The notes under the pieces were generated by a model. That model was not told the DNA's origin. It searched no databases and was given only the letters and a program-made list of their open reading frames with translations. Position numbers and translations under genes: made by a program. Positions 464-64,000 of a stretch of 64,000 nucleotides of DNA are shown in pieces (position 1 is the first letter of the stretch; each line of letters starts with the position of its first letter). Origin of the DNA: Gemmatimonadota bacterium (GTDB lineage Bacteria > Gemmatimonadota > Gemmatimonadetes > Palauibacterales > Palauibacteraceae); NCBI GenBank assembly GCA_048060725.1, contig JBGMQU010000003.1, positions 527 to 64,526 of the forward strand. The letters run 5' to 3'.

Positions 464-855
464 GGATCCTCTGTTCCGGGCCCAATTGTTGCCATGCTCC
501 CACACTTGTGCGGTAACTGTCCAGCACGAAGAACGGGGCTCGAATGCGTCGGTTCGACGGCGCCCCGTATTCCAGGCGAACACGGGGCGGGGCCGCCAGA
601 CAACCTGCAGTATCGCGCGGCAAGGAACGTGCTTGGTGACTATGTTGCGTGGCACGATCGGTGTGCCGGGCGAGGATTGGGAGTGGGTTAGAGACGGGGC
701 GGGAAGCGTTGATCGCAAAAGCCGATAGTCCAGAGCCTCCGGTAGGCGCTTTGCGAGCGACGGGGACGGGTGTCTCAGGAGTCATGGGACGACCCTGGTC
801 CCGGCGTCGTCCCCAACGGCTTCCGCCTCAAGCCGTCCCCTCGGGCTCGCCCTTG

Positions 856-2199: not shown

Positions 2200-2205
2200 A
2201 CGTCC

Positions 2206-7256: not shown

Positions 7257-7261
7257 TCCGA

Positions 7262-8731: not shown

Positions 8732-8850
8732 CGGCTCCCTCGTCGCCTAACGGTCCATCTGCCAACGTCTTGCACAGGACGGGATCAAGACCCGTGCCGT
8801 CATGGGGCCAGCCGGAAGATCGCGGACCGGTCGCACTCCGGTCCAGTGTG

Positions 8851-11962: not shown

Positions 11963-12153
11963 CCGTCCTCCACACCCGGGTGGCGCCCGGCTGGATCGCG
12001 CCGGACTCGCTAGAGTCTGTCAGCCGAGGCAAGTTAGACGGGGCCACAGGGCAGTTCCAGCCCGGCCCCCGCATCGCGGGCAAGGAACCTGCAAGCATGC
12101 GACCAGCGCGGGTGGACCGCGGGGCAGTCGCGGGGGAAAGCCGAGGAGCTACG

Positions 12154-13113: not shown

Positions 13114-13156
13114 GATCGACCGCGTTCGGCGCGATCCGCGTACCTCATGGATGCAG

Positions 13157-13194
13157 GAAGGGCCGGGCCCCCTCGCGGGGAAAACCGGCCCTTC
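13157..13194. terminator. Bidirectional hairpin between convergent genes
   Basis: There is a perfect 10-bp inverted repeat, GAAGGGCCGG (13157-13166) and CCGGCCCTTC (13185-13194). It encloses a GC-rich inner CCCC/GGGG repeat. The hairpin sits between the stops at 13113 (+) and 13234 (-). There is no clear U-tract. Confidence 0.5.
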
Positions 13195-13233
13195 AGACGT
13201 GCCCGTCCGTCTATGTGCCGCTATCTCTCGTTC

Positions 13234-15729
13234 CTATACGGCGTCCGCGTAGTAGTAGTGGACGTAGTACTCGTAGTCCGGAGCCGACTTCGGCAGCGCG
13301 TTGAGCACGGCCCCAACGATCGGGAGGTCCACGTTTCCGAGCGCATTGAGCTTCGCCTTCGCCAGATCTTCGGTGGTTGTCCCGGCGCGCAGCACCACGA
13401 CGACCTTGTTCACGAGCGATCCGAGGAGCAGCACGTCAGCTCCTGCGGCGAGCGGTGGGCCGTCCATGACGACCACGTCATACTCTTCACGCATTTGATC
13501 GAGCAGGCCGCGCATACCGGCACTCTCGAGCAGGTCCGCGTTGAATCCGCCCGGCGCACCGCGCGCGAGCAGGGTCAGGTTCTCGATCGACGTTTCCTGG
13601 CGAATCTCATCCAGTGTCGCCCGGTCCATCAAGAAGTCGGTCAGCCCCGGCGAACGGTTGAGGTTGAACATCTCCTGGGCGCGTCCGCGTCGCGTGTCAC
13701 CGTCGAGCAACAGGGTCCGGTACCCGGCCGTCGCGTACGAAATCGCGAGGTTGGCCGAGACCATCGACTTGCCCTCTCGTGGCGCCGGGCTGGTAATCAG
13801 CATCACGCCGCCCGGGTTGCCGTCTACGTGTGCGATCTGCGTGCGGAGTCCGCGGAAGGACTCGACGGCGATCGCCGCAGCGGGGCTCGCGGGGTCGGGC
13901 GTAGCTTCGAGCCGCGGCACGACTGCGAGCACGGGCAGGCCGAGCGCGCCCGTAACCTGGTCAGGTGAATGGATCCGGCGGTCGAACCGATCGAAGACGA
14001 CAACGCCGGCCACGCCGATGCCGAGACCGAGCAACGCGAAGAGGGCGATCACTCCACCCGGCTTCTCGCCACGCGGCGACGGGTCGGGCCATGCCGGATT
14101 GAGGATAGTGATCCCCGGCCCGCTGGTCGCCTCGGCCAACTCCGCCTCCTTGAGACGCGAAAGAAGCACCGAGTTGAGACCGGCAGCCTGCTGGACCTCA
14201 CGCTGCAGGCGGGCCGTCTGAATCGTTCGCTGCGGGATCTCCCGAAGCTGAACGCCCTGATTGGCGATCTGCCGATTGAGGAGGTCGACCTGGTTCTGGA
14301 TTTCGGAGCCGAGGCGCGCGAGGGCGGCCGGGATGATCGAACGTTCGAGCTCGTTCATCAGCTGTGTGGCCTGGACGACCTCGGGAGCCACCTCCGTATA
14401 CGTCGACAACAACGTGCGCCGGTTCAGCCGCGCCTGATACAGCTGGTCGACGGCAGACTGGAGTTCCGGATATTGACCGGCCGACGGCAACATTCGGATG
14501 GCGAGAAGGTTCAGCGGTCGGCCCGCAGACAGGTCCGCCCGGATCCCCTCGATCTGCTGGTACTCGAGCTGCAGTTGGTCGGCGCGCAGCTTGTTGTTCG
14601 CGAAGGCGCTGAACATCGGATCCGGCGATCCGAGGGCGGTCGCGGTCCCGACCGATGTCTGGGCCGCGAACGGCTCCGTCGGCTCCGTGATCGCATCTAC
14701 GCGATGCGCCTGCAGGCTGAGTTCGGCCCGCTGTAACAGTGCACCCGTGAGGTCGGACTGTTCCTGAAGAAGTTCCACTTCGTCACGAATTTTTGTCGTC
14801 CTGAGCCGATCGGCCAAGTTGACGAACTCGGCGGTGATCGCATTCAGGATCTCAGCCGCCTCATAGGGGTCGTGCCAGACGAACTCCGCGGTGATGATGT
14901 CGGAGCGATTCCTGAACCCGGCGTCGAGTCGACCGGCGAGGTTGCGAACCGTGGCCTGGGCCGTGTTGATTCGGAAGCGGATCTCGGAGTCGGCCAGCGC
15001 CGAAAGATCGGGAGACCACGAGAAGCCAGCGGACGACCCGATCTCACCACCTCGCTGCCCCTGTTCGATCGCGTTCGACTCGCCTGCACGAGCGAGAGCC
15101 CATGATCCACCCGAGCCGACGGTGACCTCGTATTCGCCGGGAACCGATTCGTCCGATACGAGGAAGTGGTCGAAAAGCGAGCGCTCGGTATCACCGAGCA
15201 CGCGCAACTGAAGCCCGAGCTCTTCTACGACCGGTGAGAGAACCGCTCGACTGGAGAAAACATCGGTCCACCCGTCGACGGGCAGCACCGAACCCGCCTG
15301 GATGGGGCCAGTCTTCGTCGTACCGCCGTCCTCGATGGCCAGCGTCGTCGACGTCATATACTCTGGGGAGACGAGTTGAGACGCGCCCCATCCGACCCCG
15401 AGCCCGACAGCGACCGCCCCGAGCAGCCATAGCTTCTTCGTCCACAGCAATCGACCGAGCCGGCCGAGTTCCAGCCCCTCACCCTCGCCCTGGTTGATTG
15501 CATAGTCCGGGTAATAGTACGTGTGCGCAGGAGCTACCTGGCCCTGCTGCGGGTACGGTACCGGAACCGACCCCCCCACTCTATCGTCGTTGGTCAACGA
15601 TCTTCTCCATTCCCCCTCGAGTGCTCCGAACGACCCCGAAAACTGACTCTCCCCGCGCCGGAGGTCGTCGCCGCTCTTAGGAGCAAGACTGGTGCCGGGG
15701 ACCGCCGCTCCGATGTGCCCGTGGTTCAT
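13234..15729 (-). CDS. Polysaccharide co-polymerase / tyrosine autokinase (Wzc/GumC/EpsG-like)
   Basis: This 831-aa protein has two TM segments flanking a long coiled periplasmic region. The C-terminal kinase domain has Walker A (SPAPREGKS), Walker A' (LLLDGDTRRG) and Walker B (DVVVMDGPPL). The tail is tyrosine-rich (PDYEYYVHYYYADAV). Confidence 0.85.
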   Translation of the reverse strand: MNHGHIGAAVPGTSLAPKSGDDLRRGESQFSGSFGALEGEWRRSLTNDDRVGGSVPVPYPQQGQVAPAHTYYYPDYAINQGEGEGLELGRLGRLLWTKKLWLLGAVAVGLGVGWGASQLVSPEYMTSTTLAIEDGGTTKTGPIQAGSVLPVDGWTDVFSSRAVLSPVVEELGLQLRVLGDTERSLFDHFLVSDESVPGEYEVTVGSGGSWALARAGESNAIEQGQRGGEIGSSAGFSWSPDLSALADSEIRFRINTAQATVRNLAGRLDAGFRNRSDIITAEFVWHDPYEAAEILNAITAEFVNLADRLRTTKIRDEVELLQEQSDLTGALLQRAELSLQAHRVDAITEPTEPFAAQTSVGTATALGSPDPMFSAFANNKLRADQLQLEYQQIEGIRADLSAGRPLNLLAIRMLPSAGQYPELQSAVDQLYQARLNRRTLLSTYTEVAPEVVQATQLMNELERSIIPAALARLGSEIQNQVDLLNRQIANQGVQLREIPQRTIQTARLQREVQQAAGLNSVLLSRLKEAELAEATSGPGITILNPAWPDPSPRGEKPGGVIALFALLGLGIGVAGVVVFDRFDRRIHSPDQVTGALGLPVLAVVPRLEATPDPASPAAAIAVESFRGLRTQIAHVDGNPGGVMLITSPAPREGKSMVSANLAISYATAGYRTLLLDGDTRRGRAQEMFNLNRSPGLTDFLMDRATLDEIRQETSIENLTLLARGAPGGFNADLLESAGMRGLLDQMREEYDVVVMDGPPLAAGADVLLLGSLVNKVVVVLRAGTTTEDLAKAKLNALGNVDLPIVGAVLNALPKSAPDYEYYVHYYYADAV

Positions 15730-16188
15730 ACCCTTCGGGCCCCGTGATTACAGACCGACGATCGCGGTCGTTGCGCGCTTACAGCACTCTCCGCTCCCGT
15801 CTGTCCCGTGGCGGTGGCAGCGCTCATCGATACCACGACTATGTCCTCCCGGCCCTGAACGTTCCCTCGCGCGCTTTGCCGCGATCCGGAGCACTTCGCG
15901 CGACCCGATGGATTCGGGGCCGCGGCGACGCGACGGGACCCACCCGGGTGCTTCGGCGGCCTCCTAAGTCGCTCGCACGCAACTCTTAACGCCGAAACCG
16001 TTGCTTCTATGCCGCGATCGGGACGCGCGAGGTCGAGTGTCACGCGGCCAGAATCGCTCCGTCGGCCACTCCCGTGCGTAACGACAGCACCCGACGTTGT
16101 GACTCCGCCACACACCGCGGAGAGAAGCGATCGGCTCACCTGGGCTGGATTGCCCGACGACTTCGTATCCCGAAGATAGGCGCAGTTC

Positions 16189-32980: not shown

Positions 32981-35900
32981 TTACACTCCTCCTGCGGTCA
33001 CCGGGACCTGCTCCCCTCCCGCCCTCGCGAGGAGTCGCAACGCCTCGATCAGGGTGGGGAGCAGGGGCTCGGTGCCCGCTCGTTTCAACACCAAGGATAA
33101 CGGCTGAAGGCGTCGTACTTCAACGTCCAGTTGCCGGTCCGCGAACGCATGTCGGAGTAACCCCAACTGCGGCGTCGCGGCCGGCTCGAACGTCAACCTC
33201 GCATCGTTCTCGGAAGCCCGTATCCACGACGCTTCGACGGCGGACCCCAGAACGCGCAGTTCCGCCACATCGAGGAGCCGCGCGGCCTGATCCGGAAGCG
33301 GGCCGAACCGATCTCGAAGTTCGTCCCGGAGGTCGGCCACTTCCTGCCACTCAGTGAGACGCGAGAGGCGCCGATATAGATGCATCTTGTTTTCGGGTTC
33401 CCCCACATAGTCGTCCGGGAGAAGTGACTCTCCGTCGATCGCGACCCGAGCACTGCGGCGCTCCTCCCCCGGATCTCCGCGCAGACGACGCACCGTGCTC
33501 GAGACCAATCGCTGGTAGGTCTCGATTCCGACTGCCGTCGCGAACCCGCTCTGTTCGGCTCCCAACAGGTTACCCGCGCCGCGCAGCTCGAGATCCTTCA
33601 GGGCCACCTGGTATCCCGACCCGAGCGCCGTGTGGTGCTCGAGCACGCGGAGACGCTGCTCCGCGTCGCGCGAGACACTCGACGGAAGAATGAGATAGCA
33701 ATACGCCCGGCGGTGCGACCGGCCGACCCGGCCGCGTAGCTGGTACAACTGCGCCAACCCGAACCTGTCCGCGCGGTGCACGATGATCGTGTTCGCGTTC
33801 GGTACATCGAGTCCGTTCTCGATGATCGACGTACACACCATTACCTGAACATCTCCGTCCATCAGCCCGCGCATTACCCGCTCCAGCTCCCGTTCCGACA
33901 TCTGGCCGTGCGCAACCGAGATCTCGACCTCCGGAACCAGTCCGCGAACCCTCTCCGCGAGCGCTTCGATCGTCTCGACCCGGTCGTGGACGACGAACAC
34001 CTGGCCCCCTCGATCGAGTTCGCGCATGAGGGCGTCCTCGAGAACGAGGTCGTCCCACGGGAGGACGTGTGTGATGATGGGCATGCGGTTACGCGGCGGT
34101 GTTCGAATCAGCGAGAGATCCCGGATTCCGCCAAGCGCGAGGTGAAGCGTGCGGGGAATTGGCGTCGCCGTCAGGGTGAGGACGTCGACCGATTCCTTCA
34201 ACTCCTTGAGTCGCTCTTTTTGTTTCACTCCGAAGCGTTGTTCCTCGTCGACGATGAGCAACCCCAGGTCGGCGAAACGTACGTCCTTCGAAAGAAGCCG
34301 GTGGGTGCCGATCACGATGTCCACGTTCCCGCCCTCGATGCCCTCGACGATCTTCCGCTGGCTCCCGGGCGTCTGGAATCGGGACAGTCCCTCGATGCGG
34401 AGGGGGAAGCCGGCCAGACGCTCCCGGAACGTGTGGAGGTGCTGGTCCGCCAGGATCGTGGTCGGGGCCAGAATGGCCACCTGCGCTCCACCCTGCACCG
34501 CCATGAACGCCGCCCGGATCGCGATCTCGGTCTTTCCGAAGCCTACGTCGCCACAGACAAGCCGATCCATCGGTCGGGCCTCCTCGAGGTCCTTCCGGAC
34601 CGCGCGCCACGCCTCCAGCTGATCCGGAGTCTCATCATAAAGAAACGCCGACTCCATCTCGCGCTGCCATGCCGTGTCCGACCTGAACGCTCGTCCCGGC
34701 GCCAGTTGTCGCTTGGCGTACAGTTGCAGAAGCTCGACGGCGCTGGCCTCGATCGCCCCGACCGTTCTTCGTTTGAGCTGCTTCCACCGCTTGCCTCCCA
34801 GCTTGTGCACCGGCGGCGCCGACTCCAGGGTCTCACCGCCGGACGAGCTCCAGCGTTCGATGAGGTCGAGCCGATAGTGTGGCAGCTTCAACATCTCGCG
34901 ATCCGCATACTCGATCGCGAGCGTCTCGATCGTCTCGCCGCCGATCTCGACGCGCTCGATCCCGCGGTAGCGTCCGATCCCGTGGTCCATGTGGACCACA
35001 TAGTCGCCCGGCCGGATCGAGGCGATGGACTCGAGCGTCGCGGCTCCCCGGAAACGGGTACGCGCCCGACGGTAGGTCCGGCGAAAGATCTCGTGATCCG
35101 TCAGGATCAGCGCGGGGGCGGGGCCGCCGACCCGAAATCCGCCGCTGAGAGAACCGATTCCGAGGGTGATCCCCCCCGACAGACCCGGGCTGCCGCGCTC
35201 CGCCAGAATCTCTTCGAGTCGCTCGATCTGGCCGTCGTTGTCGCAGAGGATGGTCGGTCGCTCCCCCGCCCGGACGGAAGCCGTGAGCACCTGAACGAGC
35301 CGGCCCATGTCACGGTCGATCGGGGGGGGCGGTTCGATGGGTAGATCGGTGTCGGGTGCCTCGCCTTCCGGCATCACCTCGATCCGTCGGAGACGCTCGA
35401 TCCGCGTTTCCGATGCGTCGGGGGGCTCGACGAGCGCCTCGACTGGCGCGGCGTCGGGTCCGGCCCGGCCCCGCGCGTCGCGGACTTCATCCCACAACCT
35501 CGTGCGGGCCCCGCGCTCCGCCCCGGGATCGAGCCGAACGAGGAGTGTCGTTTCCGGTAGCATCTCGAGAAGGGATCGGGGCTCCGTCGCTTCCGCGCCC
35601 GGACTGAGATCGATGGGCAGGATGTCGCAGTTGTCGACGGTGTCCGTGGACCGCTGGGTCAGCGCGTCGAACGGTCGGATCGACTCGATCTGGTCGCCCC
35701 ACAACTCGATGCGCAGGGGCGCCGCGTGGCCGAACGGAAACACGTCGATCAGGCCCCCGCGGAGAGCGTAGTCTCCAACCTCTTTGACCGTACCCGTCCG
35801 TTCGAAGCCCATCCGGTCGAGTCGCTCCGCCAGGGGGTGGAGGCCCGGCGAGTCGCCGGTGGCCAGCGTGAGGACGAAGGACTCACCCGGCGTCACCGGG

Positions 35901-36367
35901 ACGGGAGTTCGCTCGGCGAGCGCTCGTCCTGTCGTCACGAGCATGGTCACCCGACCGGCCAGAAGGGCGCCCAGCGCGTCGACCCGCTGGGCGGCGATCT
36001 CGACATGTGGATCGGCGTCCTCGTATGGCAGCGTCTCTCGCTGTGGGAAGCACCGAGACCCTCTCCCGGACAGGCTCTGGACGTCGGCGTGTATCTCGTC
36101 GGCTCGCCCGGGCGTGGGCGCGACCACGACGACGGGAGTGCCGACGGCGGCGTCACGCAGCGCCGTCGCGAGGGCGGCGATGCCGGCGCCGGGGATGGGG
36201 GGGATGGATACACGTGCCCCCCCTCGTGAAAGCTTCGCGGGCAGATCCGCGTGTCTTACGAGTGCGGCGAACGTTCGATGAATCGCTTCGAAGCGCGAGA
36301 TGTCGCGTGACTCCGGTATTACGTGGCCCCGGTGTTCGCTTCGGCGTCCGGCTCGGCTCCCCTCCAC
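32981..36367 (-). CDS. mfd: Transcription-repair coupling factor
   Basis: The 1128-aa protein has a CarD-like domain (PGDYVVHMDHGIGRY), helicase motifs (LVCGDVGFGKTE, LLIVDEEQRFG) and a TRCF C-terminal domain. The GTG start at 36367 overlaps the upstream gene by 49 nt, and I found no alternative start nearby. Confidence 0.95.
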   Translation of the reverse strand: MEGSRAGRRSEHRGHVIPESRDISRFEAIHRTFAALVRHADLPAKLSRGGARVSIPPIPGAGIAALATALRDAAVGTPVVVVAPTPGRADEIHADVQSLSGRGSRCFPQRETLPYEDADPHVEIAAQRVDALGALLAGRVTMLVTTGRALAERTPVPVTPGESFVLTLATGDSPGLHPLAERLDRMGFERTGTVKEVGDYALRGGLIDVFPFGHAAPLRIELWGDQIESIRPFDALTQRSTDTVDNCDILPIDLSPGAEATEPRSLLEMLPETTLLVRLDPGAERGARTRLWDEVRDARGRAGPDAAPVEALVEPPDASETRIERLRRIEVMPEGEAPDTDLPIEPPPPIDRDMGRLVQVLTASVRAGERPTILCDNDGQIERLEEILAERGSPGLSGGITLGIGSLSGGFRVGGPAPALILTDHEIFRRTYRRARTRFRGAATLESIASIRPGDYVVHMDHGIGRYRGIERVEIGGETIETLAIEYADREMLKLPHYRLDLIERWSSSGGETLESAPPVHKLGGKRWKQLKRRTVGAIEASAVELLQLYAKRQLAPGRAFRSDTAWQREMESAFLYDETPDQLEAWRAVRKDLEEARPMDRLVCGDVGFGKTEIAIRAAFMAVQGGAQVAILAPTTILADQHLHTFRERLAGFPLRIEGLSRFQTPGSQRKIVEGIEGGNVDIVIGTHRLLSKDVRFADLGLLIVDEEQRFGVKQKERLKELKESVDVLTLTATPIPRTLHLALGGIRDLSLIRTPPRNRMPIITHVLPWDDLVLEDALMRELDRGGQVFVVHDRVETIEALAERVRGLVPEVEISVAHGQMSERELERVMRGLMDGDVQVMVCTSIIENGLDVPNANTIIVHRADRFGLAQLYQLRGRVGRSHRRAYCYLILPSSVSRDAEQRLRVLEHHTALGSGYQVALKDLELRGAGNLLGAEQSGFATAVGIETYQRLVSSTVRRLRGDPGEERRSARVAIDGESLLPDDYVGEPENKMHLYRRLSRLTEWQEVADLRDELRDRFGPLPDQAARLLDVAELRVLGSAVEASWIRASENDARLTFEPAATPQLGLLRHAFADRQLDVEVRRLQPLSLVLKRAGTEPLLPTLIEALRLLARAGGEQVPVTAGGV

Positions 36368-38331
36368 CCGCCGGTCCCGTTTGCGCGTTTTCGCGCGCGT
36401 CCAGGCGTGGCAAGGAACAACTCGAGCGCCGCGAGCGCCAGTGCGAGTCCGAGGAGCCAGGGAGCCATATCGCGCCCGCGACGCCCACGAAAGACCTCAT
36501 CCTGCCATTCCGCTGCTCCGGGCCCGCCAGTGAATACGGCCCTGCCCGGAAACATCTCCGCGAGCTCGCCGGCCGGGATGGCGGTCGGGTCGAGTTCGCG
36601 CTCGGGCACGTTGACCGCGAAATGGGCCACTCGAGGCCCGCCCACGGGGTCGCCTCCGTCAACCCGGTAGATGCCCGAACGCCCGGCCGTGAACCATCCA
36701 CCGCCCTCGACGGAGGACACGCTCTGGTCGGGGGCGGTCACGGTCCGCGCCCAGGGTGGCAACGTAAGCGGGACGCCCGCGTCGAAGTCCGATGTCGGCC
36801 ACCCCGAAAGGTGAGACCACCGGACCAGCAGCGCCTCGAGAAACGGCAGAATGGCGGGGTGAGTGGGGAGATCGCTGGCGCGGGGGACGAGCGGAGACGC
36901 GAGGAGCAACACGGTGCTCGCCCGTCCAGTCGTCCGGACGAGCCAGGGCTCGCCGTCCTCCGTGCGGAGCATCGCCGAGTCGGCACCGGCAGCGATGCCC
37001 GTTCGAGGGCGCAGAAGATAGCGGTCTCGCACCCGGATCCCGGCGAGCGAGAATCCCGCATCGGGTTCATCCAGGGCGAGGCTACCCCGTCCCGGATCGA
37101 TGCGGACCGTCCACCCGACGTCAAAACCGGTCAGCATCTGGTTGAATGCCGGCACGTCCACCGGATCGGCCGGCGGGAGCAATATCAGCGTGCCCTCGGC
37201 GTTGGTGGCGGCGCCCACTCCGCCCGATGGCACGCCTTCTATCACGGTGACCGTCCCCCCGGCCGTCGAGCTCAGCCGCCCTGCATCGCGCAGGGTCTCG
37301 ATGCCGATGCGCGCGAAGCTGGTGTCGGGGCCGACGAACGTGACCCCTGGTGGCACGACGACGTGAATCGAGAAGAAGCGGGTGTCGTCCGCACGCGCCC
37401 CCGCCGGGTCGACCTCCACCCGGCCCTCGTGGGTGCCGATCGTCAGTGCGGGGAGTCCGATCGTCGCGTCCGTACCCCACGTGGCGCGCGCCGCGCCGGC
37501 GATCCGCCCATCGAGCTGAAGACGGATCGAGGCTTCGTCGGAGTCGGGCGGGTTTGTCCCGGTATCGAACGCCCCGCCCGACCTGGTGGCACGCACGATC
37601 ACACCGTGGCCGATTCCCGACGAAACGGTGGTGCCACCCGTCAGTTGAACCTCCGCGACGGCGTCATTCGGCCCGTCGGGTGGGGGCGGGACGTACGCAA
37701 CCAGCGCGGCGGCGTCCTCTCCCGTAACGGTGGCGTCGAACGCTCCACGTTGAAGATCGGAGATCAGCTGGACCTCACGCCGCCGCTGGCCGTCCGCCGG
37801 GAGCGCAGACGACGCCCGTACGACCACGTCGCGCAGATCCGCGCCGCCGTCGGAAAGCTCGATGAGCCGGAGCGCCTCTGCGGCCCGGACTCCACCTACC
37901 CCTGCAGCGACCGGATCGCCGATCGATGGGAACACCCACACCCGATCCTCCGGGCGCGTGTACTCGAGTGACTCGCGGGCCCGATCGAGCAGATGCTCGA
38001 AAAGGGTCCGGTCGCCGACCAGCCGGCCCGTACTCGCGGAATTGTCGATGACCAGCGCCAGGTCGGTCGGGTCGTGGTCGGCGGCTCCGCCTCGACCCAG
38101 GAGAGGGCCGGCGGCGGCGAGCGCCAGCGCGATCAGCAGGCCGACTCGGGTGGCCAGAAGCAGGATATCGGATGCGGCGAGCGACCGGGACCTCGCGTCT
38201 TCTGCGCTGGTCAGGTAGCGCAGCGCCGGGAACGCCACGCGGCGGTCGGTCCGGCGGCGTCGCAGGTGAAGAATGAGCGGGACGATCGCGGCGAGACCGA
38301 GTGCGATCGCCCAGGCGTGAAGAAAGCTCAT
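36319..38331 (-). CDS. BatA-N-terminal (double-TM) domain protein, 670 aa
   Basis: MSFLHAWAIALGLAAIVPLILHLRRRR...AFPALRYL...LLLATRVGLLIALALAAAGP matches the N-terminal double-transmembrane 'aerotolerance' Bat-type domain. A vWA-like segment (LALVIDNSASTG) follows, then a long extracytoplasmic region and a C-terminal TM segment. Confidence 0.7.
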   Translation of the reverse strand: MSFLHAWAIALGLAAIVPLILHLRRRRTDRRVAFPALRYLTSAEDARSRSLAASDILLLATRVGLLIALALAAAGPLLGRGGAADHDPTDLALVIDNSASTGRLVGDRTLFEHLLDRARESLEYTRPEDRVWVFPSIGDPVAAGVGGVRAAEALRLIELSDGGADLRDVVVRASSALPADGQRRREVQLISDLQRGAFDATVTGEDAAALVAYVPPPPDGPNDAVAEVQLTGGTTVSSGIGHGVIVRATRSGGAFDTGTNPPDSDEASIRLQLDGRIAGAARATWGTDATIGLPALTIGTHEGRVEVDPAGARADDTRFFSIHVVVPPGVTFVGPDTSFARIGIETLRDAGRLSSTAGGTVTVIEGVPSGGVGAATNAEGTLILLPPADPVDVPAFNQMLTGFDVGWTVRIDPGRGSLALDEPDAGFSLAGIRVRDRYLLRPRTGIAAGADSAMLRTEDGEPWLVRTTGRASTVLLLASPLVPRASDLPTHPAILPFLEALLVRWSHLSGWPTSDFDAGVPLTLPPWARTVTAPDQSVSSVEGGGWFTAGRSGIYRVDGGDPVGGPRVAHFAVNVPERELDPTAIPAGELAEMFPGRAVFTGGPGAAEWQDEVFRGRRGRDMAPWLLGLALALAALELFLATPGRARKRANGTGGWRGAEPDAEANTGAT

Positions 38332-39272
38332 CCGAGACGCGTCCGCTTACGCAGGAACCTGCGGAGCGCGAGTCCCAGGGGCGTATCGGTCGTAACGAAC
38401 GCGTATTCCGCACCCACCCGCATGGCTTCGCGCCGCCACCCGGCGATCGCCGCCTCCACCGCGTCACGATACTGCCGTCTCAGCGCCGCGGAATTCGTTC
38501 CCAGCTCTTCGCCCGTTTCCGGATCGAAGAACACCGCTTCGCCTGCAGCGGGAAGCTCCAGCTCGCCGGGATCCATGACATGGAAGATCAGCACCTCGTG
38601 CCCTCGGTGACGCAGATAACGGAGCGACGTGCGGGTCGTTTCCGGATCCACGAGCAGATCGGAGATCAGGATGACGAGGCCGCGACGCTGGAGTCGTTGC
38701 GCGACATCCTTGAGTGCGCTCCCCGCCTCGGTCCGGCCATCGGCCTCCAGCGACTCCAGCTTTCCCAGGAAGCGCCGCCAGTGCAGTCGGGTGGTGCGAG
38801 GCGCGAGATGCGCCCGCACACGTTCGTCGAAGGCAATGAGCCCGGTCGCGTCGCCCTGCTGCATGAGGAGGAGCGACAGCGAAGCCGCCAACAGACGTGC
38901 GTACGCGAGCTTCGTCGGATACCGCTCCGGGTCCGAAACCCAGTCCATGGACTTGCTCACGTCGAGGAGCATGTAGGCGCGGAGGTTGGTCTCCTCCTCG
39001 AACTGCTTGATAAACAGCCGATCGGACCGGGCGTATACCTTCCAGTCGAGGAACTTGATGTCGTCGCCGAGGTTATAGGGGCGGTTCTCGGCAAACTCGG
39101 CCGAGAAACCCCGGAAGGGCGAGCGGTGGAGCCCGATGAGAAACCCCTCTACGACCCCGCGGGCCATGAGTTCCAGGTGCTCGAGCCCGGCGATCTCGCG
39201 AGGACTGGCGAGGTCGAGGCGCTGTCGCGTGGCCTCGATCGGAGTTTGCAAGCTTGCGGTCGGTTCGTTCAC
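38328..39272 (-). CDS. DUF58 domain protein (vWA-like, usually MoxR-associated)
   Basis: HRSPFRGFSAEFAENRPYNLGDDIKFLDWKVYARSD...YMLLDVSKSM is the DUF58 pattern. The downstream gene's start overlaps this gene's stop (ATGA). Confidence 0.8.
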   Translation of the reverse strand: MNEPTASLQTPIEATRQRLDLASPREIAGLEHLELMARGVVEGFLIGLHRSPFRGFSAEFAENRPYNLGDDIKFLDWKVYARSDRLFIKQFEEETNLRAYMLLDVSKSMDWVSDPERYPTKLAYARLLAASLSLLLMQQGDATGLIAFDERVRAHLAPRTTRLHWRRFLGKLESLEADGRTEAGSALKDVAQRLQRRGLVILISDLLVDPETTRTSLRYLRHRGHEVLIFHVMDPGELELPAAGEAVFFDPETGEELGTNSAALRRQYRDAVEAAIAGWRREAMRVGAEYAFVTTDTPLGLALRRFLRKRTRLG

Positions 39273-39297
39273 AGGGAAAGACTAGCCGACGCTGACA

Positions 39298-57553: not shown

Positions 57554-60500
57554 TCAGCTCGTGGCGCGGGCCGGCGTCCGGATGATCACGCCGGGCACCC
57601 CCTTTTCGCGCAACAGCTGGTTGAATTCCGCGACATCCGAATCGATGATCTGCTCGAGCGCATCGAGGTGTACGCCGAGGGCCGCCCGCAGGTCGTCCGC
57701 GCGCTCCGCGGCGCCGGCGTTCGGCCGATCGTACGTGGACCGGATGTAGCCGTAGAGCGCGGCGATCTGATTGTCGAGCATCGGCGGGAAGTTGAGCGGA
57801 TCCTGCCCGGACTCGTTCTTCGTCTGGAAGAGCTCTTCCTCGACGGCGGTCAGTTTCTCTCCCGTGTCTTCGGCCATCGTCTCGAACTCGTCACCGAAGC
57901 CGGCGTCCTTCGCCGTCTTCGCCACGTCCGTCATCTGATCGCGGATGGAGCGGATTTCGCGGACGGCGTCGTGCGACTCTTCCAGCATGGCCCGGACACG
58001 AACCATCAGATCGTGCTGAGCCTGCAGGTCCGCTGTCGAGACTTCGCCGGCCACGCGTGGATCGATTGCCACGTCGAGGGGCCGGGTCTGCGAGACGTCA
58101 CCCGTGGAAAGCCGGACCTCGTACTCGCCGGGAACCGCGGGAACCCGACCCGTGAAGCCCCAGATCTGCGCTCCGTCCACGATGTCGGGGCCCTCCTCCT
58201 GGAAGTTCCAGATCACTCGATTGAGGCCGGCCTCCGCGTCGAGGCGATCCGGGCTCCAATCGGGCGACCGGCCGATCGCCGCCTTCGCCTCGTCATCCCA
58301 GCTCTCCGGTTCGGTCGAGTAGACGCGTACCGTTCGTCCCGTGCGGTCGACGATCTCGAGGCTCAGAGGGTCGTCCGGATCCTCCGCCAGCTGGAAGTAG
58401 ATTGCCGCCCCGTTGGGGAAGACCCCCTGAGCGCGAACGGATGGCCCGGGCGTGTAGAGATGCAGCGGAGCGGAAGCGGTGGCGGCCGTCATCTGCCGAA
58501 CCGGTGTGATGTCGTCCAGGATCCAGAACGACCGGCCCTGCGTCGCCACCACGAGGTCGCCCCGGTGTATGCGCATGTCGGTGACGGGAGTGACGGGGAG
58601 ATCCAGCCGGAACGACTGCCACATCCCGCCGTCGTCGAAGCTGACGTACATGCCGTTCTCGGTGCCGGCGAACAGGAGCCCCTGTCGGACGGGATCTTCG
58701 CGGACGACCCGTACGAAGTGGCCGTCCTCGATACCGGCCGTACCCAGCCGGGTCCACGTTTCGCCGTAGTCGTCGGTCTGGAAGATGTAGGACCCGACGT
58801 CCTGCATCCGGTACCGGTAGGCGACGACGAGCGCCCGTCCGGCGCCGTGGGCCGACAGATCGATCATGTTCACGGTCGAGAACTCGGGGAGTCCGGGCGG
58901 CGTCACGTTTGCCCAGTTCGCGCCATCGTCACGAGAGACGTGGACGAGTCCGTCGTCCGAGCCGGCCCAAAGCACACCGCGCTCGTGGGGCGACTCCTCG
59001 AACGCGAAGATGGTCCCGTAGACCTCGACACCGGTGTTGTCCCAGGTGATTCGGCCGCCGGCCCAGTCCTGCTTGGTCGTGTCGTTTCTGGTCAGGTCGG
59101 GGCTGATGGTCTCCCAGGAGTATCCGCCGTCGGTCGTGCGGTTCACGAACTGAGACGTGTGGTAGACTACGTCCGGGTCGTGGGGTGAGATCCGGATCGG
59201 CGCGTTCCATTGGAAGCGGTGACGCAAGGTTCTGGGCGCCTGTCCGAGTTGCAGTTCCGGGTAGATGAGGATTTGCCGGACGTCCCCGGTGGCCCGGTTT
59301 ACGCGATTGATGTTCCCGCCGTAGCAGCCGGCGTACGTGACCATCGGGTCGCGCGGATCGATCGCGATGTGGCCGCTCTCGCACCCGCCGACCGCAGCCC
59401 AGTATTGGCTCGGCTGAACCGCGGGCATCCCGCGGCTCGGCACCATGATCGTCGAGTTGTCCTGCTGCGACCCGTACACACGATAAGGGAACTGGTCGTC
59501 CACGAAGACCCGGTAGATCTCAGCCGTCGTCTGGTTGTAGTAGGTCGACCACGACTCGGCCCCGGTCGTGGTTACCTGACCGCCCCCATCGTCCGCCACG
59601 ACCTGAAAGTCGGGGTCATCGTAGTTGATCCAGAGGTCATGGACGTCGCCGTGGGGCACTCCGTAGCTCTGCCAGGTCGTGCCGCCGTCGATCGACTTGA
59701 AGTATCCGGTGTTGAGCGCGTACACGGTGTTCTCGTCGACCGGGTCGGCGTAGATGTGCGTGTAGTACCACGCCCGTTGCTGGAGTTTGCGCTCGCGATT
59801 GACCCGCTTCCACGTGTCGCCGCCGTCGTCGGAGCGATACACGCCGCCCGCGTCATCCGGCGCCTCGATCAGCACCCACACCCGGTCGGGGTTCGCCCGC
59901 GACACGGTGACCGCCGCCTTGCCGACCAGCCCGGTGGGGAGTCCGCCCTCCAGCCGCTCCCAACTGTCGCCGGAGTCCGTCGAGCGGAAGATCCCGCTCT
60001 CCTCGGACCCCGAGATCGTGGTCCATGGCTTTCGTTCCGCCCGCCATGCCGCGGCGAAGATGACCCGAGGGTTCCCGGGGTTGATCGCGAGATCCACGAC
60101 CCCGGTCGAGTCCGAAATAAAGAGGACCCGATCCCAGGTGTCGCCGCCATCGAGCGTGCGGTATACGCCCCGTTCGGGGTTCGGCCCGAACGGATCGCCG
60201 AGCGCGGCCACGAAGGCGACGTCGGGGTCGTCCGGGTGGACCTCGATGCGGCCGATCTGGCCGGCGTTCGGGAGGCCGACGTGACTCCACGAGTCACCCC
60301 CGTCGGTGCTTCGATACACTCCGACGCCTTTCGACACGTTGCCCCGGATGCAGGCTGACCCCGTGCCGACGTAGATGACGTTCGCATCGCTGTCCGCGAC
60401 GTCGATGGCCCCGATCGACCCCGTGGAGAAAAAGTCATCCGAGACGTTGGTCCAGTTCAGGCCGGCGTCGCTCGTCTTCCAGACTCCGCCCCCGGTGGCC

Positions 60501-60709
60501 CCCATGAAGAACGTGAGCGGTTTTTCCGTGATGCCGGCCACGGCAGTGCTGCGCCCGCCGCGCGGTGGACCGATGGACCGATACGAAAGATCGCCGAATG
60601 CGGACTCATCGAACGCCGCTCCCTCCTGCGCGGTCGCCGCGCCAGGGGCCAGAACGCCGAAGGTCAGGACGGCGAGGAGCGCCGCTACGGGGGTGGGCGT
60701 GGTGCGCAT
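57554..60709 (-). CDS. BNR/Asp-box repeat, sortilin(VPS10)-like secreted protein
   Basis: The 1051-aa protein has a signal peptide and repeated S-x-D-x-G-x-T-W Asp-box motifs (TSDAGLNWT, STDGGDSWS, TLDGGDTWD, STDSGDSWE, SDDGGDTWK, SIDGGTTWQ, TTDGGYSWE, SRDDGANWA, TDDYGETWT). Confidence 0.85.
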   Translation of the reverse strand: MRTTPTPVAALLAVLTFGVLAPGAATAQEGAAFDESAFGDLSYRSIGPPRGGRSTAVAGITEKPLTFFMGATGGGVWKTSDAGLNWTNVSDDFFSTGSIGAIDVADSDANVIYVGTGSACIRGNVSKGVGVYRSTDGGDSWSHVGLPNAGQIGRIEVHPDDPDVAFVAALGDPFGPNPERGVYRTLDGGDTWDRVLFISDSTGVVDLAINPGNPRVIFAAAWRAERKPWTTISGSEESGIFRSTDSGDSWERLEGGLPTGLVGKAAVTVSRANPDRVWVLIEAPDDAGGVYRSDDGGDTWKRVNRERKLQQRAWYYTHIYADPVDENTVYALNTGYFKSIDGGTTWQSYGVPHGDVHDLWINYDDPDFQVVADDGGGQVTTTGAESWSTYYNQTTAEIYRVFVDDQFPYRVYGSQQDNSTIMVPSRGMPAVQPSQYWAAVGGCESGHIAIDPRDPMVTYAGCYGGNINRVNRATGDVRQILIYPELQLGQAPRTLRHRFQWNAPIRISPHDPDVVYHTSQFVNRTTDGGYSWETISPDLTRNDTTKQDWAGGRITWDNTGVEVYGTIFAFEESPHERGVLWAGSDDGLVHVSRDDGANWANVTPPGLPEFSTVNMIDLSAHGAGRALVVAYRYRMQDVGSYIFQTDDYGETWTRLGTAGIEDGHFVRVVREDPVRQGLLFAGTENGMYVSFDDGGMWQSFRLDLPVTPVTDMRIHRGDLVVATQGRSFWILDDITPVRQMTAATASAPLHLYTPGPSVRAQGVFPNGAAIYFQLAEDPDDPLSLEIVDRTGRTVRVYSTEPESWDDEAKAAIGRSPDWSPDRLDAEAGLNRVIWNFQEEGPDIVDGAQIWGFTGRVPAVPGEYEVRLSTGDVSQTRPLDVAIDPRVAGEVSTADLQAQHDLMVRVRAMLEESHDAVREIRSIRDQMTDVAKTAKDAGFGDEFETMAEDTGEKLTAVEEELFQTKNESGQDPLNFPPMLDNQIAALYGYIRSTYDRPNAGAAERADDLRAALGVHLDALEQIIDSDVAEFNQLLREKGVPGVIIRTPARATS

Positions 60710-60798: not shown

Positions 60799-61224
60799 TC
60801 AGGGCCGAGCCCTGGACAGAGAGTCGTACCACCTTGAGCGGATCTCCTCGATCAGGTCCTCGCGCTCCGTTCGGATTCGTCGCACAACGTCCGGGGGCGC
60901 CGCCGTTTCGGGGTCGTGGATCGCTCCCCACAGGATCATCTCGATCAGGATCGGGAGCGTATCGAGACCCTTCTCGGTCAGGCCGTACTCGTATCGCTTC
61001 CTATCGCCGGGGTCGCGGGTCCTGGTGAGCAACCCCGCGGCCTCCAGTCGTTCGAGCCGGTCGGCCAGGATGTTCGTGGAGATCCCTTCACCAGCGTCGA
61101 GGAACTCGCCGTAGTACCGCCGGCCCCCGAACAGGATGTCCCGGAGCACCAGCAGGCTCCAGCGATCGCCGAACAACTCCAGCGAAACGGAGACGGGACA
61201 CCCCGACCTTCTGCCTTTTCTCAT
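60799..61224 (-). CDS. HxlR family transcriptional regulator
   Basis: CPVSVSLELFGDRWSLLVLRDILFGGRRYYGEF...ISTNILADRLERLEAAGLL. It is divergent from the DinB-family gene. Confidence 0.85.
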   Translation of the reverse strand: MRKGRRSGCPVSVSLELFGDRWSLLVLRDILFGGRRYYGEFLDAGEGISTNILADRLERLEAAGLLTRTRDPGDRKRYEYGLTEKGLDTLPILIEMILWGAIHDPETAAPPDVVRRIRTEREDLIEEIRSRWYDSLSRARP

Positions 61225-61334: not shown

Positions 61335-61844
61335 ATGAACAGCCCGAAGATGGCCTCGATGCTTGCCGAGCTCGAGCAGGAGGAGGCCGCGACGCTCCGC
61401 ATGCTGGAGCGCGTCCCCGCGGACAAGCTGGAGTGGCGCCCCCACCCGAAGTCGATGACGCTCGGGCAGCTCGCTCTCCATACCGCCGGCACGATCGGCG
61501 ACATCAGCAACTTCCTCGAACTCGAGGGGTTCGACGTGAACGACGCGGACTTCGAAGCCGCCCAACCGGCGTCCATCGACGAAATCCTGGAGAAGTTCGA
61601 AACTGCGCAGGCGATGGCGCGCGAACGGTTCGCGGCCTTGAGCGACGACCAGGCGGCGGCGCCCTGGACTCTGTCGAAGGGCGACACCGAGATCTTCACG
61701 ATTCCGAAGGCCTGGCTCGCTCGATCGCTCATGATGAACCACCTGTACCACCATCGCGGTCAGCTGTCCGTATACCTCCGTCTTCTCGATGTGCCCGTGC
61801 CTGTCACGTACGGACGGAGCGCCGACGAAGACGCCTTTGCGTAG
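61335..61844 (+). CDS. DinB family protein
   Basis: The 169-aa protein reads LEQEEAATLRMLERVPADKLEWRPHPKSMTLGQLALH...MNHLYHHRGQLSVYLRLL, which fits the DinB four-helix pattern with His residues. Confidence 0.8.
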   Translation: MNSPKMASMLAELEQEEAATLRMLERVPADKLEWRPHPKSMTLGQLALHTAGTIGDISNFLELEGFDVNDADFEAAQPASIDEILEKFETAQAMARERFAALSDDQAAAPWTLSKGDTEIFTIPKAWLARSLMMNHLYHHRGQLSVYLRLLDVPVPVTYGRSADEDAFA

Positions 61845-61882: not shown

Positions 61883-62407
61883 CTACGAGGTGATCAGGTC
61901 GAGGATGTCATCGATGGCGCCCTCAGCAATCTGTTCCAGTTCGGCAGGGGAGCGGTTCTGGATCGGGTGCGGAACCCAGACGATCCCCGGCTCGAACCCG
62001 AGCGACCGCGACTGCTTGGCCGCCGCGTCCCGGAACTCCGTCGTCACGACGAAGCAGCCCGGTACGCCCCGGTCATCGAGCGCCTTCAGGTCGTGCAGAC
62101 CGCACGACGTGCAGGATCCTCAGTCGGCGAGTGCCTGGACGACGGCGTGCGCCTCCGTCGCGATCCGCTGGAGGATGTCGGGGGAGGCGGTCCGCGCGTT
62201 CGTGGGTTTCCTCGATCGGATCGTGTCGACGCCGCGCGCGGTCAACCGCATCTCGAGATAGTCGAGGAACTCCTCACTGCGCGCCTTCCCGATCCCCTGG
62301 AGGGCGACGACCTTGCCGACAAGGCTGGCCGGCGGGGCCCTTCGGGGCCGGACGACAGGTTCCGTCTCGGCCGTAGGGTCGCACAGCACATTGACCGCGT
62401 CGTTCAT
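61883..62407 (-). CDS. Selenoprotein with U-G-S-C redox motif (UGA-recoded; 174 aa, Sec at residue 96)
   Basis: The track ORF ends at TGA 62120-62122, but the same frame stays open for 78 more G/C3-rich codons to TAG 61883-61885. Hand translation gives MNDAVNVL...EAHAVVQALAD-U-GSCTSCGLHDLKALDDRGVPGCFVVTTEFRDAAAKQSRSLGFEPGIVWVPHPIQNRSPAELEQIAEGAIDDILDLITS. A SECIS-like hairpin lies 11 nt downstream of the UGA. The ATG at 62407 overlaps the stop of the upstream gene (ATGA). I recall a curated family named 'UGSC family (seleno)protein', and this should be verified. Confidence 0.8.
62090..62108 (-). promoter_or_regulatory. Bacterial SECIS element (apical stem-loop)
   Basis: The minus-strand RNA reads UGA-GGAUCCUGCAC-GUCGUGC-GGUCU-GCACGAC, a perfect 7-bp stem with a GGUCU loop. 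Numbering the U of UGA as +1, the loop spans +22 to +26, with G at +23 and U at +24. This is the same geometry and GGUC loop as the E. coli fdhF SECIS, as I recall it. Confidence 0.75.
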
Positions 62408-63855
62408 GTCCGGATCTCCCTCGTTACCGGATGCGAATGCTCGTGAGCCCGCCCGCCCGGCCAGCCGGGCAGGATCGCCGAGAACAGCCCTGCAGGCCCG
62501 CCCGCCCGGGCGATCAGCAGGCCGTCTGGGGGGAACTTCGGGATCATGTCGTCCGCCCGCGAGGCCGGCATGCCCTCCCCGACGCCGCCCGCGCCCTCGA
62601 TGAGATCCCGGCCCGGCCGGGTGGTCGCGTCGGTCAGCGCACGGGTGATCCGGGTCCGATCCCAGCCGGCGTCCCGGAAGATCGCGTAGTGCTCCGGCGA
62701 GAGCAGGAGCAGCGTGAACGCCCATTCGCAGAGCTTCGGGTGGCCGACCGACACGAGGCTCATCGCGAGAGACCGCACCAGTTCTTCGGGGGTGCGGGAC
62801 TGCTGGTCCACGAACCCCTGCACGCCCTCTCCCTGGAACAGCGTGACCGCGTTACGGCCCGGGGCGACGCCGCGCGACGTGGCGAGCGGCTCCCACTCCG
62901 GGTCGGACTCGTCTTCGGCGAAACACTGCGTGAACTTGCTCGCCGAGCCGAACGTCGCCCGGTCGATGCCGCCCGGCCTCCCGCCGCCGACGTTCTGGAC
63001 GATGAGGTTCAGCGCGCGACCGATTGTGGCGTTCGCCCGATTCCCCTGGCCGAGGACGTTGATTCCGGAGTTCATGCCGAGTCGACGGGCCATGGGGCCG
63101 TTCACGATGATGACCGGGGTGCTGAAGCAGGTGCTGCACAGAATCGCGTGGAGCGTGAAGCCCGGTTCCAGCGCCGCCTCCACGATTCCCAGGAGGAGCG
63201 GCATGTACTCCGGCCTGCAGCCGGCCATCACCGCGTTGATCGCCACCTTTTCGACGGTGCACTCCACGAGATCGGGCGGGATCTTCCCCACCATCTCCTC
63301 TGCCGGACGGGGCGTGCCCCCGAGCATCCGCACGATTCGCTCCGGCGTGGGGGGGACCACCGGGAGCCCATCCGTCCACCCCCGGTCGAAACAGGTTTCC
63401 ATCGGGTCGGTGAACTCCGGGACGTGAATGAGGCGGGAGCTGAGGCCGGTGTCCCCGTAGCGGACCAGAAGGGTCTCCGGAACTCCCGGCTCCACGGATT
63501 TTGAACCGCACCCAGGCCGATGCTTCGGGAGTCCCTCGCCGAGACCGTCGATCTCCGTCAGCCGCTCCCAATCGGCGCGGTTCCACCCGACGACCCGATC
63601 GATTTCGTCTCCGTCCACGAACCGAATCAGCGTCGGGACGGTCTCGATTCGCAGGCGAAAGGAGTGCTCGAGCGATCGGTCATCGATTACCCCGTCGACG
63701 TCCGGGGGGAATCCCGGATCGTCCTGGCTGTACACGACGATCTCGGCGTCGGCGGTGCTCAGCCGGTGAAGGACCGGCCCGACGAGCCGGCAGGCGGGGC
63801 AGTCCTCCTTCACCACCGCGACGAGCCCGGTTCGCAGAGGGTCGGAACCCCTCAC
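62404..63855 (-). CDS. Thioredoxin-fold (CPAC) domain fused to a ~380-aa domain of unknown function
   Basis: The GTG at 63855 lies 5 nt after the upstream stop; the track start at 63972 would overlap the upstream gene. The N-terminus LVAVVKEDCPACRLVGPVLHRL...VPTLIRFVDGDE is thioredoxin-like with a CxxC motif. The large C-terminal domain is Cys-containing and I cannot name it (CFDRGWTDGLPVVPPT..., AILCSTCFSTPVIIVNGP...). Confidence 0.7.
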   Translation of the reverse strand: MRGSDPLRTGLVAVVKEDCPACRLVGPVLHRLSTADAEIVVYSQDDPGFPPDVDGVIDDRSLEHSFRLRIETVPTLIRFVDGDEIDRVVGWNRADWERLTEIDGLGEGLPKHRPGCGSKSVEPGVPETLLVRYGDTGLSSRLIHVPEFTDPMETCFDRGWTDGLPVVPPTPERIVRMLGGTPRPAEEMVGKIPPDLVECTVEKVAINAVMAGCRPEYMPLLLGIVEAALEPGFTLHAILCSTCFSTPVIIVNGPMARRLGMNSGINVLGQGNRANATIGRALNLIVQNVGGGRPGGIDRATFGSASKFTQCFAEDESDPEWEPLATSRGVAPGRNAVTLFQGEGVQGFVDQQSRTPEELVRSLAMSLVSVGHPKLCEWAFTLLLLSPEHYAIFRDAGWDRTRITRALTDATTRPGRDLIEGAGGVGEGMPASRADDMIPKFPPDGLLIARAGGPAGLFSAILPGWPGGRAHEHSHPVTREIRT

Positions 63856-63859
63856 CTGC

Positions 63860-64000
63860 CTACCCGCTCCCCGGAGCCGCCTCGAGACGGTAGGCGACGA
63901 CCCAGGTGACGTCGAACTCCCCCACCTCGAAGGCCCACACGCGGTCGCCGGAAGCGGCAACGAGCTTCGCATGGTCCGGGGCCCGGAGCTCGCCGAGGTA
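63860..64000 (-). CDS. Hypothetical protein (partial; 5' end beyond the right window edge)
   Basis: Hand translation of the open minus-strand frame gives ...YLGELRAPDHAKLVAASGDRVWAFEVGEFDVTWVVAYRLEAAPGSG, ending at TAG 63860-63862. Codons are G/C3-rich. I do not recognise a family. Confidence 0.4.
   Translation of the reverse strand, partial: YLGELRAPDHAKLVAASGDRVWAFEVGEFDVTWVVAYRLEAAPGSG

Follow-up and report, generated by a model that had tools for sequence, protein, structure and literature searches.

A UGSC-family gene with a probable in-frame selenocysteine codon, and its conserved thioredoxin-domain partner, in a Gemmatimonadota bacterium

A TGA codon that interrupts an otherwise open reading frame raises the question of whether the gene ends there or is translated through a recoded codon. 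We have addressed this question at one locus of a Gemmatimonadota bacterium (Palauibacterales, Palauibacteraceae; assembly GCA_048060725.1), in a stretch of 64,000 nucleotides of contig JBGMQU010000003.1 (positions 527 to 64,526 of the forward strand) that we call the window; all coordinates below count from its first letter. A first-pass annotation, made from the letters of the window, had proposed that a minus-strand gene which the list of open reading frames (ORFs) closes at a TGA is in fact a selenoprotein gene, in which UGA is read as selenocysteine (Sec, U). Based on the reading frame, the protein family, the related loci of other bacteria and a hairpin that follows the UGA, we conclude that the gene is very probably a full-length member of the known UGSC family and that its UGA is read as Sec. 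The features on which this conclusion turns are the following.

61883 to 62407, minus strand: predicted UGSC-family selenoprotein gene, full length, 174 aa (from the sequence, PF24696, NF041046 and tblastn)
62120 to 62122, minus strand: putative Sec-UGA codon, residue U96 (from the TGA column in related loci)
62102 to 62122, minus strand: predicted redox motif U96-G-S-C99-T-S-C102, or UxxCxxC (from an alignment of 58 sequences)

The gene starts at ATG 62407-62405, with a purine-rich GAGGGAG directly upstream, and runs for 95 sense codons to TGA 62122-62120; another 78 sense codons follow before the stop TAG at 61885-61883. With the TGA counted as codon 96, the product reads ...AVVQALAD-U-GSCTSCGLHDL..., and the motif D-U-G-S-C-T-S-C occupies residues 95-102. 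The coordinates and frame of the first-pass annotation (TGA 62120-62122, 78 codons onward, TAG 61883) were thus reproduced from the sequence. A frame without stops is by itself weak evidence, as at 66% GC the stretch of 75 codons is free of stops in two of its five other frames, too. This ease with which long frames stay open by chance is one of the arguments for a rival explanation, namely that the TGA is a real stop, that the product is a 95-aa protein and that the 78 codons downstream are a remnant (pseudogene) or a separate small gene starting from GTG 62047. Another is that normal stops in the window are most often TGA, which ends about 28 of the 45 coding-like ORFs, including the gene directly upstream. 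The read-through frame stands above chance because of its codon-position GC signature and not because of its openness alone: GC fractions at codon positions 1/2/3 are 0.67/0.47/0.86 past the TGA and 0.69/0.49/0.88 ahead of it, and both halves share the pattern of the other genes in the window. The claim that the codons past the TGA are as rich in G and C at the third position as real genes is therefore borne out (0.86 vs 0.88). The interval is also free of a competing gene, as had been noted; the overlapping plus-strand ORFs are antisense mirrors, and a DinB-family gene ends at 61844. A scan of the window for in-frame TGAs flanked on either side by a coding signature returned this TGA and a single other site. 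The latter, the plus-strand TGA 37969, is coding-like on both sides and lies antisense to a BatA gene; it is probably an artefact of GC-rich sequence.

The protein family offers a second line of evidence. With U replaced by C in the query, the product matches Pfam PF24696 (UGSC) over its full length (107.2 bits, where the gathering score is 25; residues 8-173 lie on profile positions 2-171 of 172). It also matches the "UGSC family (seleno)protein" model NF041046 of NCBIfam with 111.8 bits (E 2.7e-32; residues 31-172 on profile positions 2-146 of 147), in agreement with the family that the first-pass annotation had named. A search that covered 5.8 billion proteins returned homologs of two classes. 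Those of the first class (171-198 aa, 47-60% identity, 88-99% coverage) carry Cys in the motif D-C-G-S-C-T-S-C. Those of the second class are closer to the query (54-79% identity), are only 95-111 aa long and end exactly at ...ALAD or ...ALSD; many come from Gemmatimonadota, where they are annotated as hypothetical proteins. No product identical to the 95-aa fragment is on record. Taken at face value, the calling and annotation of the closest relatives as products of 95-111 aa speaks for a real stop. Their ending at the U column is, in turn, the picture expected if gene callers stop at a Sec codon, and it agrees with the proposal that standard callers truncate this gene at its TGA. The full-length homologs show what such a stop would remove. 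The U column is Cys in 57 of the 57 full-length homolog proteins aligned with the query; across the 58 sequences C/U96, G97, S98, C99, T100 and S101 are invariant and C102 nearly so; and the C-terminal half is conserved in full-length homologs, for example in VPHPxQNR. These Cys forms are single uninterrupted proteins, which argues against two separate products.

The family itself has been described for a long time. A UGSC-containing protein of unknown function was reported by Zhang and Gladyshev in 2007, also in Hyphomonas neptunium (PMC1976440), and UGSC was found among the most abundant selenoprotein families in data from Global Ocean Sampling (GOS), with 255 Sec and 21 Cys sequences (PMC2398784). 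A 2016 survey counted it in 26 organisms, and reviews of 2022 and 2026 still list it as uncharacterised. The gene studied here is a further member of this family; its linkage to a partner gene, a predicted fold and a GrdB-like region around Sec, all discussed below, are modest additions, which we did not find stated in the UGSC literature examined.

A further argument for recoding comes from the DNA of related loci. In a scan of one genome per species (GTDB), 80 loci gave tblastn alignments (residues 1-174) that cross the TGA; judging from their record titles, they belong to Gemmatimonadota, Alphaproteobacteria (Reyranella and others), Acidobacteriota and other groups. The aligned column holds TGA in 79 of them and TGT in one (L070), and 78-95 codons are open past the TGA in the related loci. 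Together with three further loci (L081-L083), the sequenced Cys-form loci number four, with TGT or TGC as the codon. It is difficult to reconcile a real stop with a TGA and an in-frame continuation that have both been kept in 79 of 80 genomes of several phyla. The window protein is 76-83% identical to those of L001, L002 and L004 downstream of the TGA and 67-75% identical upstream of it. Across the loci, nucleotide differences from the window at codon positions 1/2/3 amount to 1560/1199/3072 over the 75 codons past the TGA and to 2206/1880/4001 over the 85 codons ahead of it. The excess at the third position and the conservation of the protein indicate that the downstream part is translated in this frame, and a coding-type substitution pattern of this kind, like the codon-position GC, is at odds with a remnant. 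As for a separate small gene, the 24 codons between the TGA and GTG 62047 (GSCTSCGLHDL...) would be untranslated, yet they are among the most conserved. Considering all of this, we regard a real stop at the TGA as highly improbable.

The same loci bear on another explanation, in which faulty sequencing or assembly has turned a Cys codon into TGA. Such an error would require the change of only one base, from TGC or TGT. However, 79 independent assemblies share this TGA, among them those of isolates and complete long-read chromosomes of metagenome-assembled genomes, and it co-varies with the hairpin described below and with a difference in the protein (G/S-L vs S-T) a few residues downstream. 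The probability that we assign to an error is practically negligible. Judged on the aligned sequences, the U column shows the Sec/Cys pair by which a bacterial selenoprotein gene is recognised. The alignment of homologs that the first-pass annotation had called for gave Cys or TGA at this column and conservation of the 78 C-terminal residues; of the outcomes it had listed as contradicting recoding, such as homologs that end at this point with nothing conserved beyond it, none of those open to testing was observed.

If the UGA is read as Sec, a bacterial Sec insertion sequence (SECIS) should lie close behind it, and the first-pass annotation had claimed one. We have identified the following candidate.

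62083 to 62115, minus strand: putative SECIS hairpin inside the coding sequence (from folding and conservation)

The upper stem of this hairpin has 7 bp (62090-62108, GUCGUGC/GCACGAC) and carries the apical loop GGUCU (62097-62101), which begins 18 nt past the UGA. The 33-nt hairpin folds with a minimum free energy (MFE) of -15.6 kcal/mol (z -2.82; an equally good fold is reached by 3 of 200 shuffles), and its 26-nt core with -12.5 kcal/mol. The published consensus for bacterial SECIS elements (PMC13188914) has four parts: a loop of 3-9 nt on an upper stem of 4-16 bp; a G in one of the first two loop positions, then G or U; a distance of 16-37 nt from the UGA; and an MFE of at most -7.5 kcal/mol. 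The hairpin falls within all four, as its loop has 5 nt, its stem 7 bp (6 bp in 62 distinct relatives), its loop sequence is GGUCU in the window and R-G-U-Y-U across the family, and its spacing and MFE are those given above; the claimed SECIS is in this sense upheld. Furthermore, pairing of the 6-bp core holds throughout the 62 distinct sequences, in which G26 and U27 of the loop are invariant, and two pairs have undergone compensatory changes: pair 21-33 is GC in 50, GU in 8 and AU in 4, and pair 24-30 is CG in 61 and UA in one. The core motif UC[GA]UG[CU]-[AG]GU[CU]U-[GA]CA[CU]GA occurs in 80 of 80 Sec forms, with core MFEs of -7.0 to -12.5 kcal/mol. In contrast, the loop motif (RGUYU) is lost in all four Cys forms, and the stem is lost as well in three of them (core MFE -6.5, -2.4 and -1.1 kcal/mol). 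The difference is visible in the protein, which reads C-[G/S]-L-H-D in Sec forms and C-S-T-H-D in Cys forms. One Cys form (L082:6001-6534, codon TGC) has a stable hairpin of -10.7 kcal/mol at the SECIS position, with the loop AGCAC, perhaps left over from a recent Sec-to-Cys conversion.

A number of observations weigh against Sec decoding at this locus. A stretch of 66 nt folds no better than its shuffles (z -0.43), the 33-nt hairpin alone being exceptional; the lower stem seen in the window (62083-62088 with 62110-62115) is not conserved across the family; and an Rfam scan of the whole window matched no family, although Rfam may hold no suitable bacterial SECIS model. The covariation reflects few independent events at mutually pairing wobble positions of conserved codons, and its score is reached by 2 of 500 shuffles; we regard it as supportive, short of decisive. 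On the protein side, the NF041046 score of 111.8 bits lies below the curated equivalog cutoff of 125, so that the product is a clear homolog under the naming threshold. Finally, neither the 64-kb window nor the flanks of related loci yielded selA, selB, selC or selD. ARAGORN detected no tRNA gene in the window and no tRNA-Sec in 60 related loci, Pfam scans of 34 window ORFs gave no SelA, SelB or SelD, and tblastn with approximate E. coli SelD and SelA queries had no match in the window or in loci L001-L080.

The lack of sel genes and of a tRNA-Sec in the window is what gives room to a third rival, according to which the UGA is read through as another amino acid: as Cys, through a tRNA(Sec)-like or suppressor tRNA, or as Trp or Gly, through an altered code. 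In some bacteria, tRNA(Sec)-like tRNAs that accept Cys do occur. That UGA is reassigned throughout the genome is nevertheless excluded, because TGA ends most genes of the window, including the one directly upstream of the UGSC gene, and the homologs have Cys at the column in question, never Trp or Gly. Against insertion of Cys, it can be said that only Sec forms strictly keep a hairpin of the SelB type, with the G[G/U] loop and the spacing of the consensus, and that UGSC is an established selenoprotein family. We consider decoding as another amino acid very unlikely. For Sec itself, the genome presumably possesses the required machinery, because the UGA and the hairpin are strictly conserved together, and on the strength of these comparisons the UGA at 62120-62122 is almost certainly decoded as Sec.

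How would the UGSC protein work? One clue comes from the gene directly upstream, to which we refer as the partner.

62404 to 63972, minus strand: partner gene, maximal ORF of 522 aa (from homology, position and AlphaFold)

By homology, the start of the partner is probably GTG 63855, which gives a protein of 483 aa, and its TGA stop overlaps the ATG of the UGSC gene (ATGA, 62404-62407); the two genes are probably co-transcribed and translationally coupled via this overlap. The partner consists of an N-terminal thioredoxin fold with C-P-A-C and an uncharacterised C-terminal domain of ~370 aa. A homolog with 56-81% identity lies directly upstream of the UGSC gene in 79 of the 80 loci, the remaining one being cut by a contig end, and the partner is also upstream, with a 4-nt overlap, in the three further Cys-form loci (L081-L083). 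When ORFs within about 9 kb were clustered, it proved to be the sole universally conserved neighbour. Its family comprises at least 8000 homolog clusters, which are named "thioredoxin family protein" and have no Pfam domain. In the AlphaFold model of the partner (predicted local distance difference test, pLDDT, 81.6), an invariant CPxC lies in the N-terminal thioredoxin fold, and the C-terminal domain holds the invariant residues C116, C199 and C213 (483-aa numbering). When 36 partner homologs were scanned against Pfam and NCBIfam under relaxed thresholds, the only matches were thioredoxin-like and N-terminal. A likeness of the partner to class I fumarate hydratase was too weak to be retained (E 2e-3, template-modelling (TM) scores 0.24/0.35, root mean square deviation 14). 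We also rejected a fusion of the partner with UGSC, since the long ORFs that extend upstream in the UGSC frame at some loci are not in the partner frame and are artefacts of GC-rich sequence.

The other neighbours of the UGSC gene are lineage-specific (alpha/beta hydrolase, MscS, LysR, GST, GntR, TctC, BKACE and class-V aminotransferase genes), and no pathway theme emerged from the UGSC neighbourhoods. In 16 Gemmatimonadota loci of the Palauibacter type, a class-V aminotransferase (Pfam Aminotran_5, the cysteine desulfurase/selenocysteine lyase type) lies directly downstream of the UGSC gene, as in L012:10514-11917; the window has no aminotransferase at this place and carries the convergent DinB-family gene (61335-61844) and an HxlR regulator (60799-61224) instead. 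Among the three further Cys-form loci, a GntR/FCD-type regulator is divergent upstream of the pair in two (L081 and L082), a TctC-type binding protein lies beside the pair in L081, and L083 carries genes for BKACE, 3-hydroxyacyl-CoA dehydrogenase and amino-acid permease; such neighbours hint at small-molecule catabolism, although they are not conserved. Elsewhere in the window, about 1 kb downstream of the UGSC gene, a secreted protein of 1051 aa with Sortilin/VPS10 and BNR repeats is encoded at 57554-60709 on the minus strand, and it is not conserved at this position in other loci. A surface-polysaccharide cluster at 640-15747 includes a Wzy-type O-antigen ligase/polymerase, GT4 and GT2 glycosyltransferases, a sulfotransferase and a Wzx-type flippase, together with an AAA_31 protein, perhaps a regulator of chain length, and a BatA / DUF58 / VWA operon of the "aerotolerance" type occupies 32981-39281 on the minus strand.

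The fold of the UGSC protein was approached through the Cys homolog P0008, which is 60% identical to the window protein and was modelled with AlphaFold from an alignment of 57 sequences. The model (pLDDT 91.0; predicted TM score, pTM, 0.84) has five beta-alpha units. Helix 3 carries the Cys that matches U96 at its N-terminus, followed by the second Cys after one turn and the third after two. The best Foldseek match in the PDB was the flavodoxin 5lji_A (E 4.6e-5, TM 0.41/0.50), among generic flavodoxin-like matches; flavodoxin domains of flavodiiron proteins and TIR domains also matched, and no thioredoxin was among the 50 PDB matches listed. A sequence search of the PDB with the UGSC alignment profile gave chance-level matches only (best E 0.076). 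The UGSC protein is therefore predicted, from the model of its homolog, to be a small flavodoxin-like alpha/beta domain, and a thioredoxin fold, which neither the five beta-alpha units nor the listed matches support, was set aside. The first-pass annotation had likened the UxxC arrangement to the CxxC redox centre of a thioredoxin fold; the analogy holds for the motif, which is in fact UxxCxxC, and fails for the predicted fold.

This extended motif, U96-x-x-C99-x-x-C102, is the one carried by GrdB, GrdF and GrdH (PMC13188914, PMC6778437), which are the selenoprotein B components of the reductases for glycine, sarcosine and betaine, as PrdB is for D-proline reductase. A resemblance to these proteins also appeared in relaxed NCBIfam scans. 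Of 58 UGSC family members, 56 matched GrdF, 55 the glycine reductase model TIGR01917, 44 GrdH and 38 TIGR01918, which includes PrdB (the GrdB/GrdF/GrdH/PrdB profiles being TIGR01917, NF040794, NF040795 and TIGR01918). The matches fall at about positions 323-398 of profiles of 431-435 positions and cover ~55-70 residues around Sec, with a best E of 9.2e-6 (TIGR01917). Three points count against reading more into them: the scores are far under the cutoffs (13.8 bits vs 602.2, on profile positions 334-398 of 431), the Pfam model GRDB was not matched, and the equivalence of U96 to the Sec of GrdB follows from profile coordinates only, near model position 347-350, which we take to be close to that Sec. 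UGSC is not a GrdB; its Sec-bearing region is probably a remote homolog of GrdB, as far as profile comparison goes.

Based on our results, we propose the following course of events. The hairpin within the 14 codons that follow the UGA (C-T-S-C-G-L-H-D...) would act as a bacterial SECIS and recruit the complex of SelB, GTP and Sec-tRNA(Sec), and translation would run on for 78 more codons to yield the 174-aa protein. In this scheme we infer the involvement of SelB and tRNA(Sec), the other steps of recoding being drawn from the sequence and its comparison. In the folded protein, U96, C99 and C102 are predicted to lie on the N-terminal turns of one helix. The UGSC protein and the partner might then form one redox enzyme, in which the large domain of the partner would hold a substrate, or else an oxidised group, for attack by the selenol of U96; the adduct would be resolved by C99 to give a selenenylsulfide, and the thioredoxin domain of the partner would re-reduce UGSC. 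We offer this two-protein relay tentatively, as an idea that falls somewhat short of probable. It is a proposal, and the ~370-aa domain to which it assigns substrate binding had no significant match in a Foldseek search of the PDB, where only the N-terminal domain matched thioredoxins. A further possibility, which we hold to be rather unlikely though worth stating, is that UGSC and the partner constitute an uncharacterised two-subunit selenoenzyme whose Sec subunit is an offshoot of the Sec domain of "protein B" of glycine and proline reductases. Such an enzyme would operate in aerobic or facultative bacteria (Gemmatimonadota, Reyranella and other Alphaproteobacteria, Acidobacteriota), with the built-in thioredoxin domain as its reductant.

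For annotation, the consequence of Sec decoding is that this locus should be described as one selenoprotein of 174 aa and not as a hypothetical protein of 95 aa. The effect reaches beyond one genome, as the Gemmatimonadota branch of UGSC scores narrowly below the NCBIfam threshold and all of its public relatives break off at the Sec codon, which points to a systematic annotation error; selenoprotein-aware annotation probably overlooks this branch systematically. A SECIS-aware gene caller, or a model relaxed slightly, would mend the truncation. UGSC is among the most abundant selenoprotein families of aquatic metagenomes, and three observations offer handles for experiments on it: the constant thioredoxin-domain partner, the predicted flavodoxin-like fold, and the GrdB-like Sec motif with its surroundings. 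Cultured carriers of UGSC include Reyranella aquatilis (KCTC 52223, locus L038), Rhodospirillaceae bacterium CCH5-H10 (locus L052) and Hyphomonas neptunium.

It remains to place the locus among known systems. With the UGSC family as described, it shares a profile match over the full length, the invariant U/C-G-S-C-T-S-C, the conserved C-terminal half, a putative SECIS right after the UGA and a large excess of Sec over Cys forms, as in GOS. It differs in belonging to a Gemmatimonadota-type branch that scores under the NF041046 cutoff (111.8 vs 125) and whose relatives are annotated as truncated hypothetical proteins. The fold differs as well: a thioredoxin-like fold was suggested for UGSC in a 2008 paper (PMC2398784), whereas the homolog modelled here is flavodoxin-like. 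The putative SECIS resembles that of the fdhF type in being a coding-region hairpin right past the UGA, with a 5-nt loop that begins G-G-U, a 7-bp upper stem, an 18-nt spacing and an MFE below -7.5 kcal/mol; it differs in that no Rfam or other curated covariance model matched it and in that its lower stem is unconserved in the family. With thioredoxin-fold selenoproteins of the UxxC/CxxU kind (Trx-, Prx-, Grx- and SelW-like), UGSC has in common a Sec in place of the first Cys of a CxxC-type motif, predicted at the N-terminus of a helix. Its predicted topology of five parallel beta-alpha units is nevertheless different, and the thioredoxin fold is found in the partner instead. Lastly, UGSC shares with GrdB, GrdF, GrdH and PrdB the UxxCxxC motif and a weak but systematic profile similarity in 55-56 of 58 members. 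At 174 aa, however, it has no counterpart of the ~330 N-terminal residues of GrdB (about 430 aa), and no GrdA, GrdC, GrdE or PrdA was seen in the annotated UGSC neighbourhoods. Its hosts are mostly aerobic or facultative lineages and not amino-acid-fermenting anaerobes.

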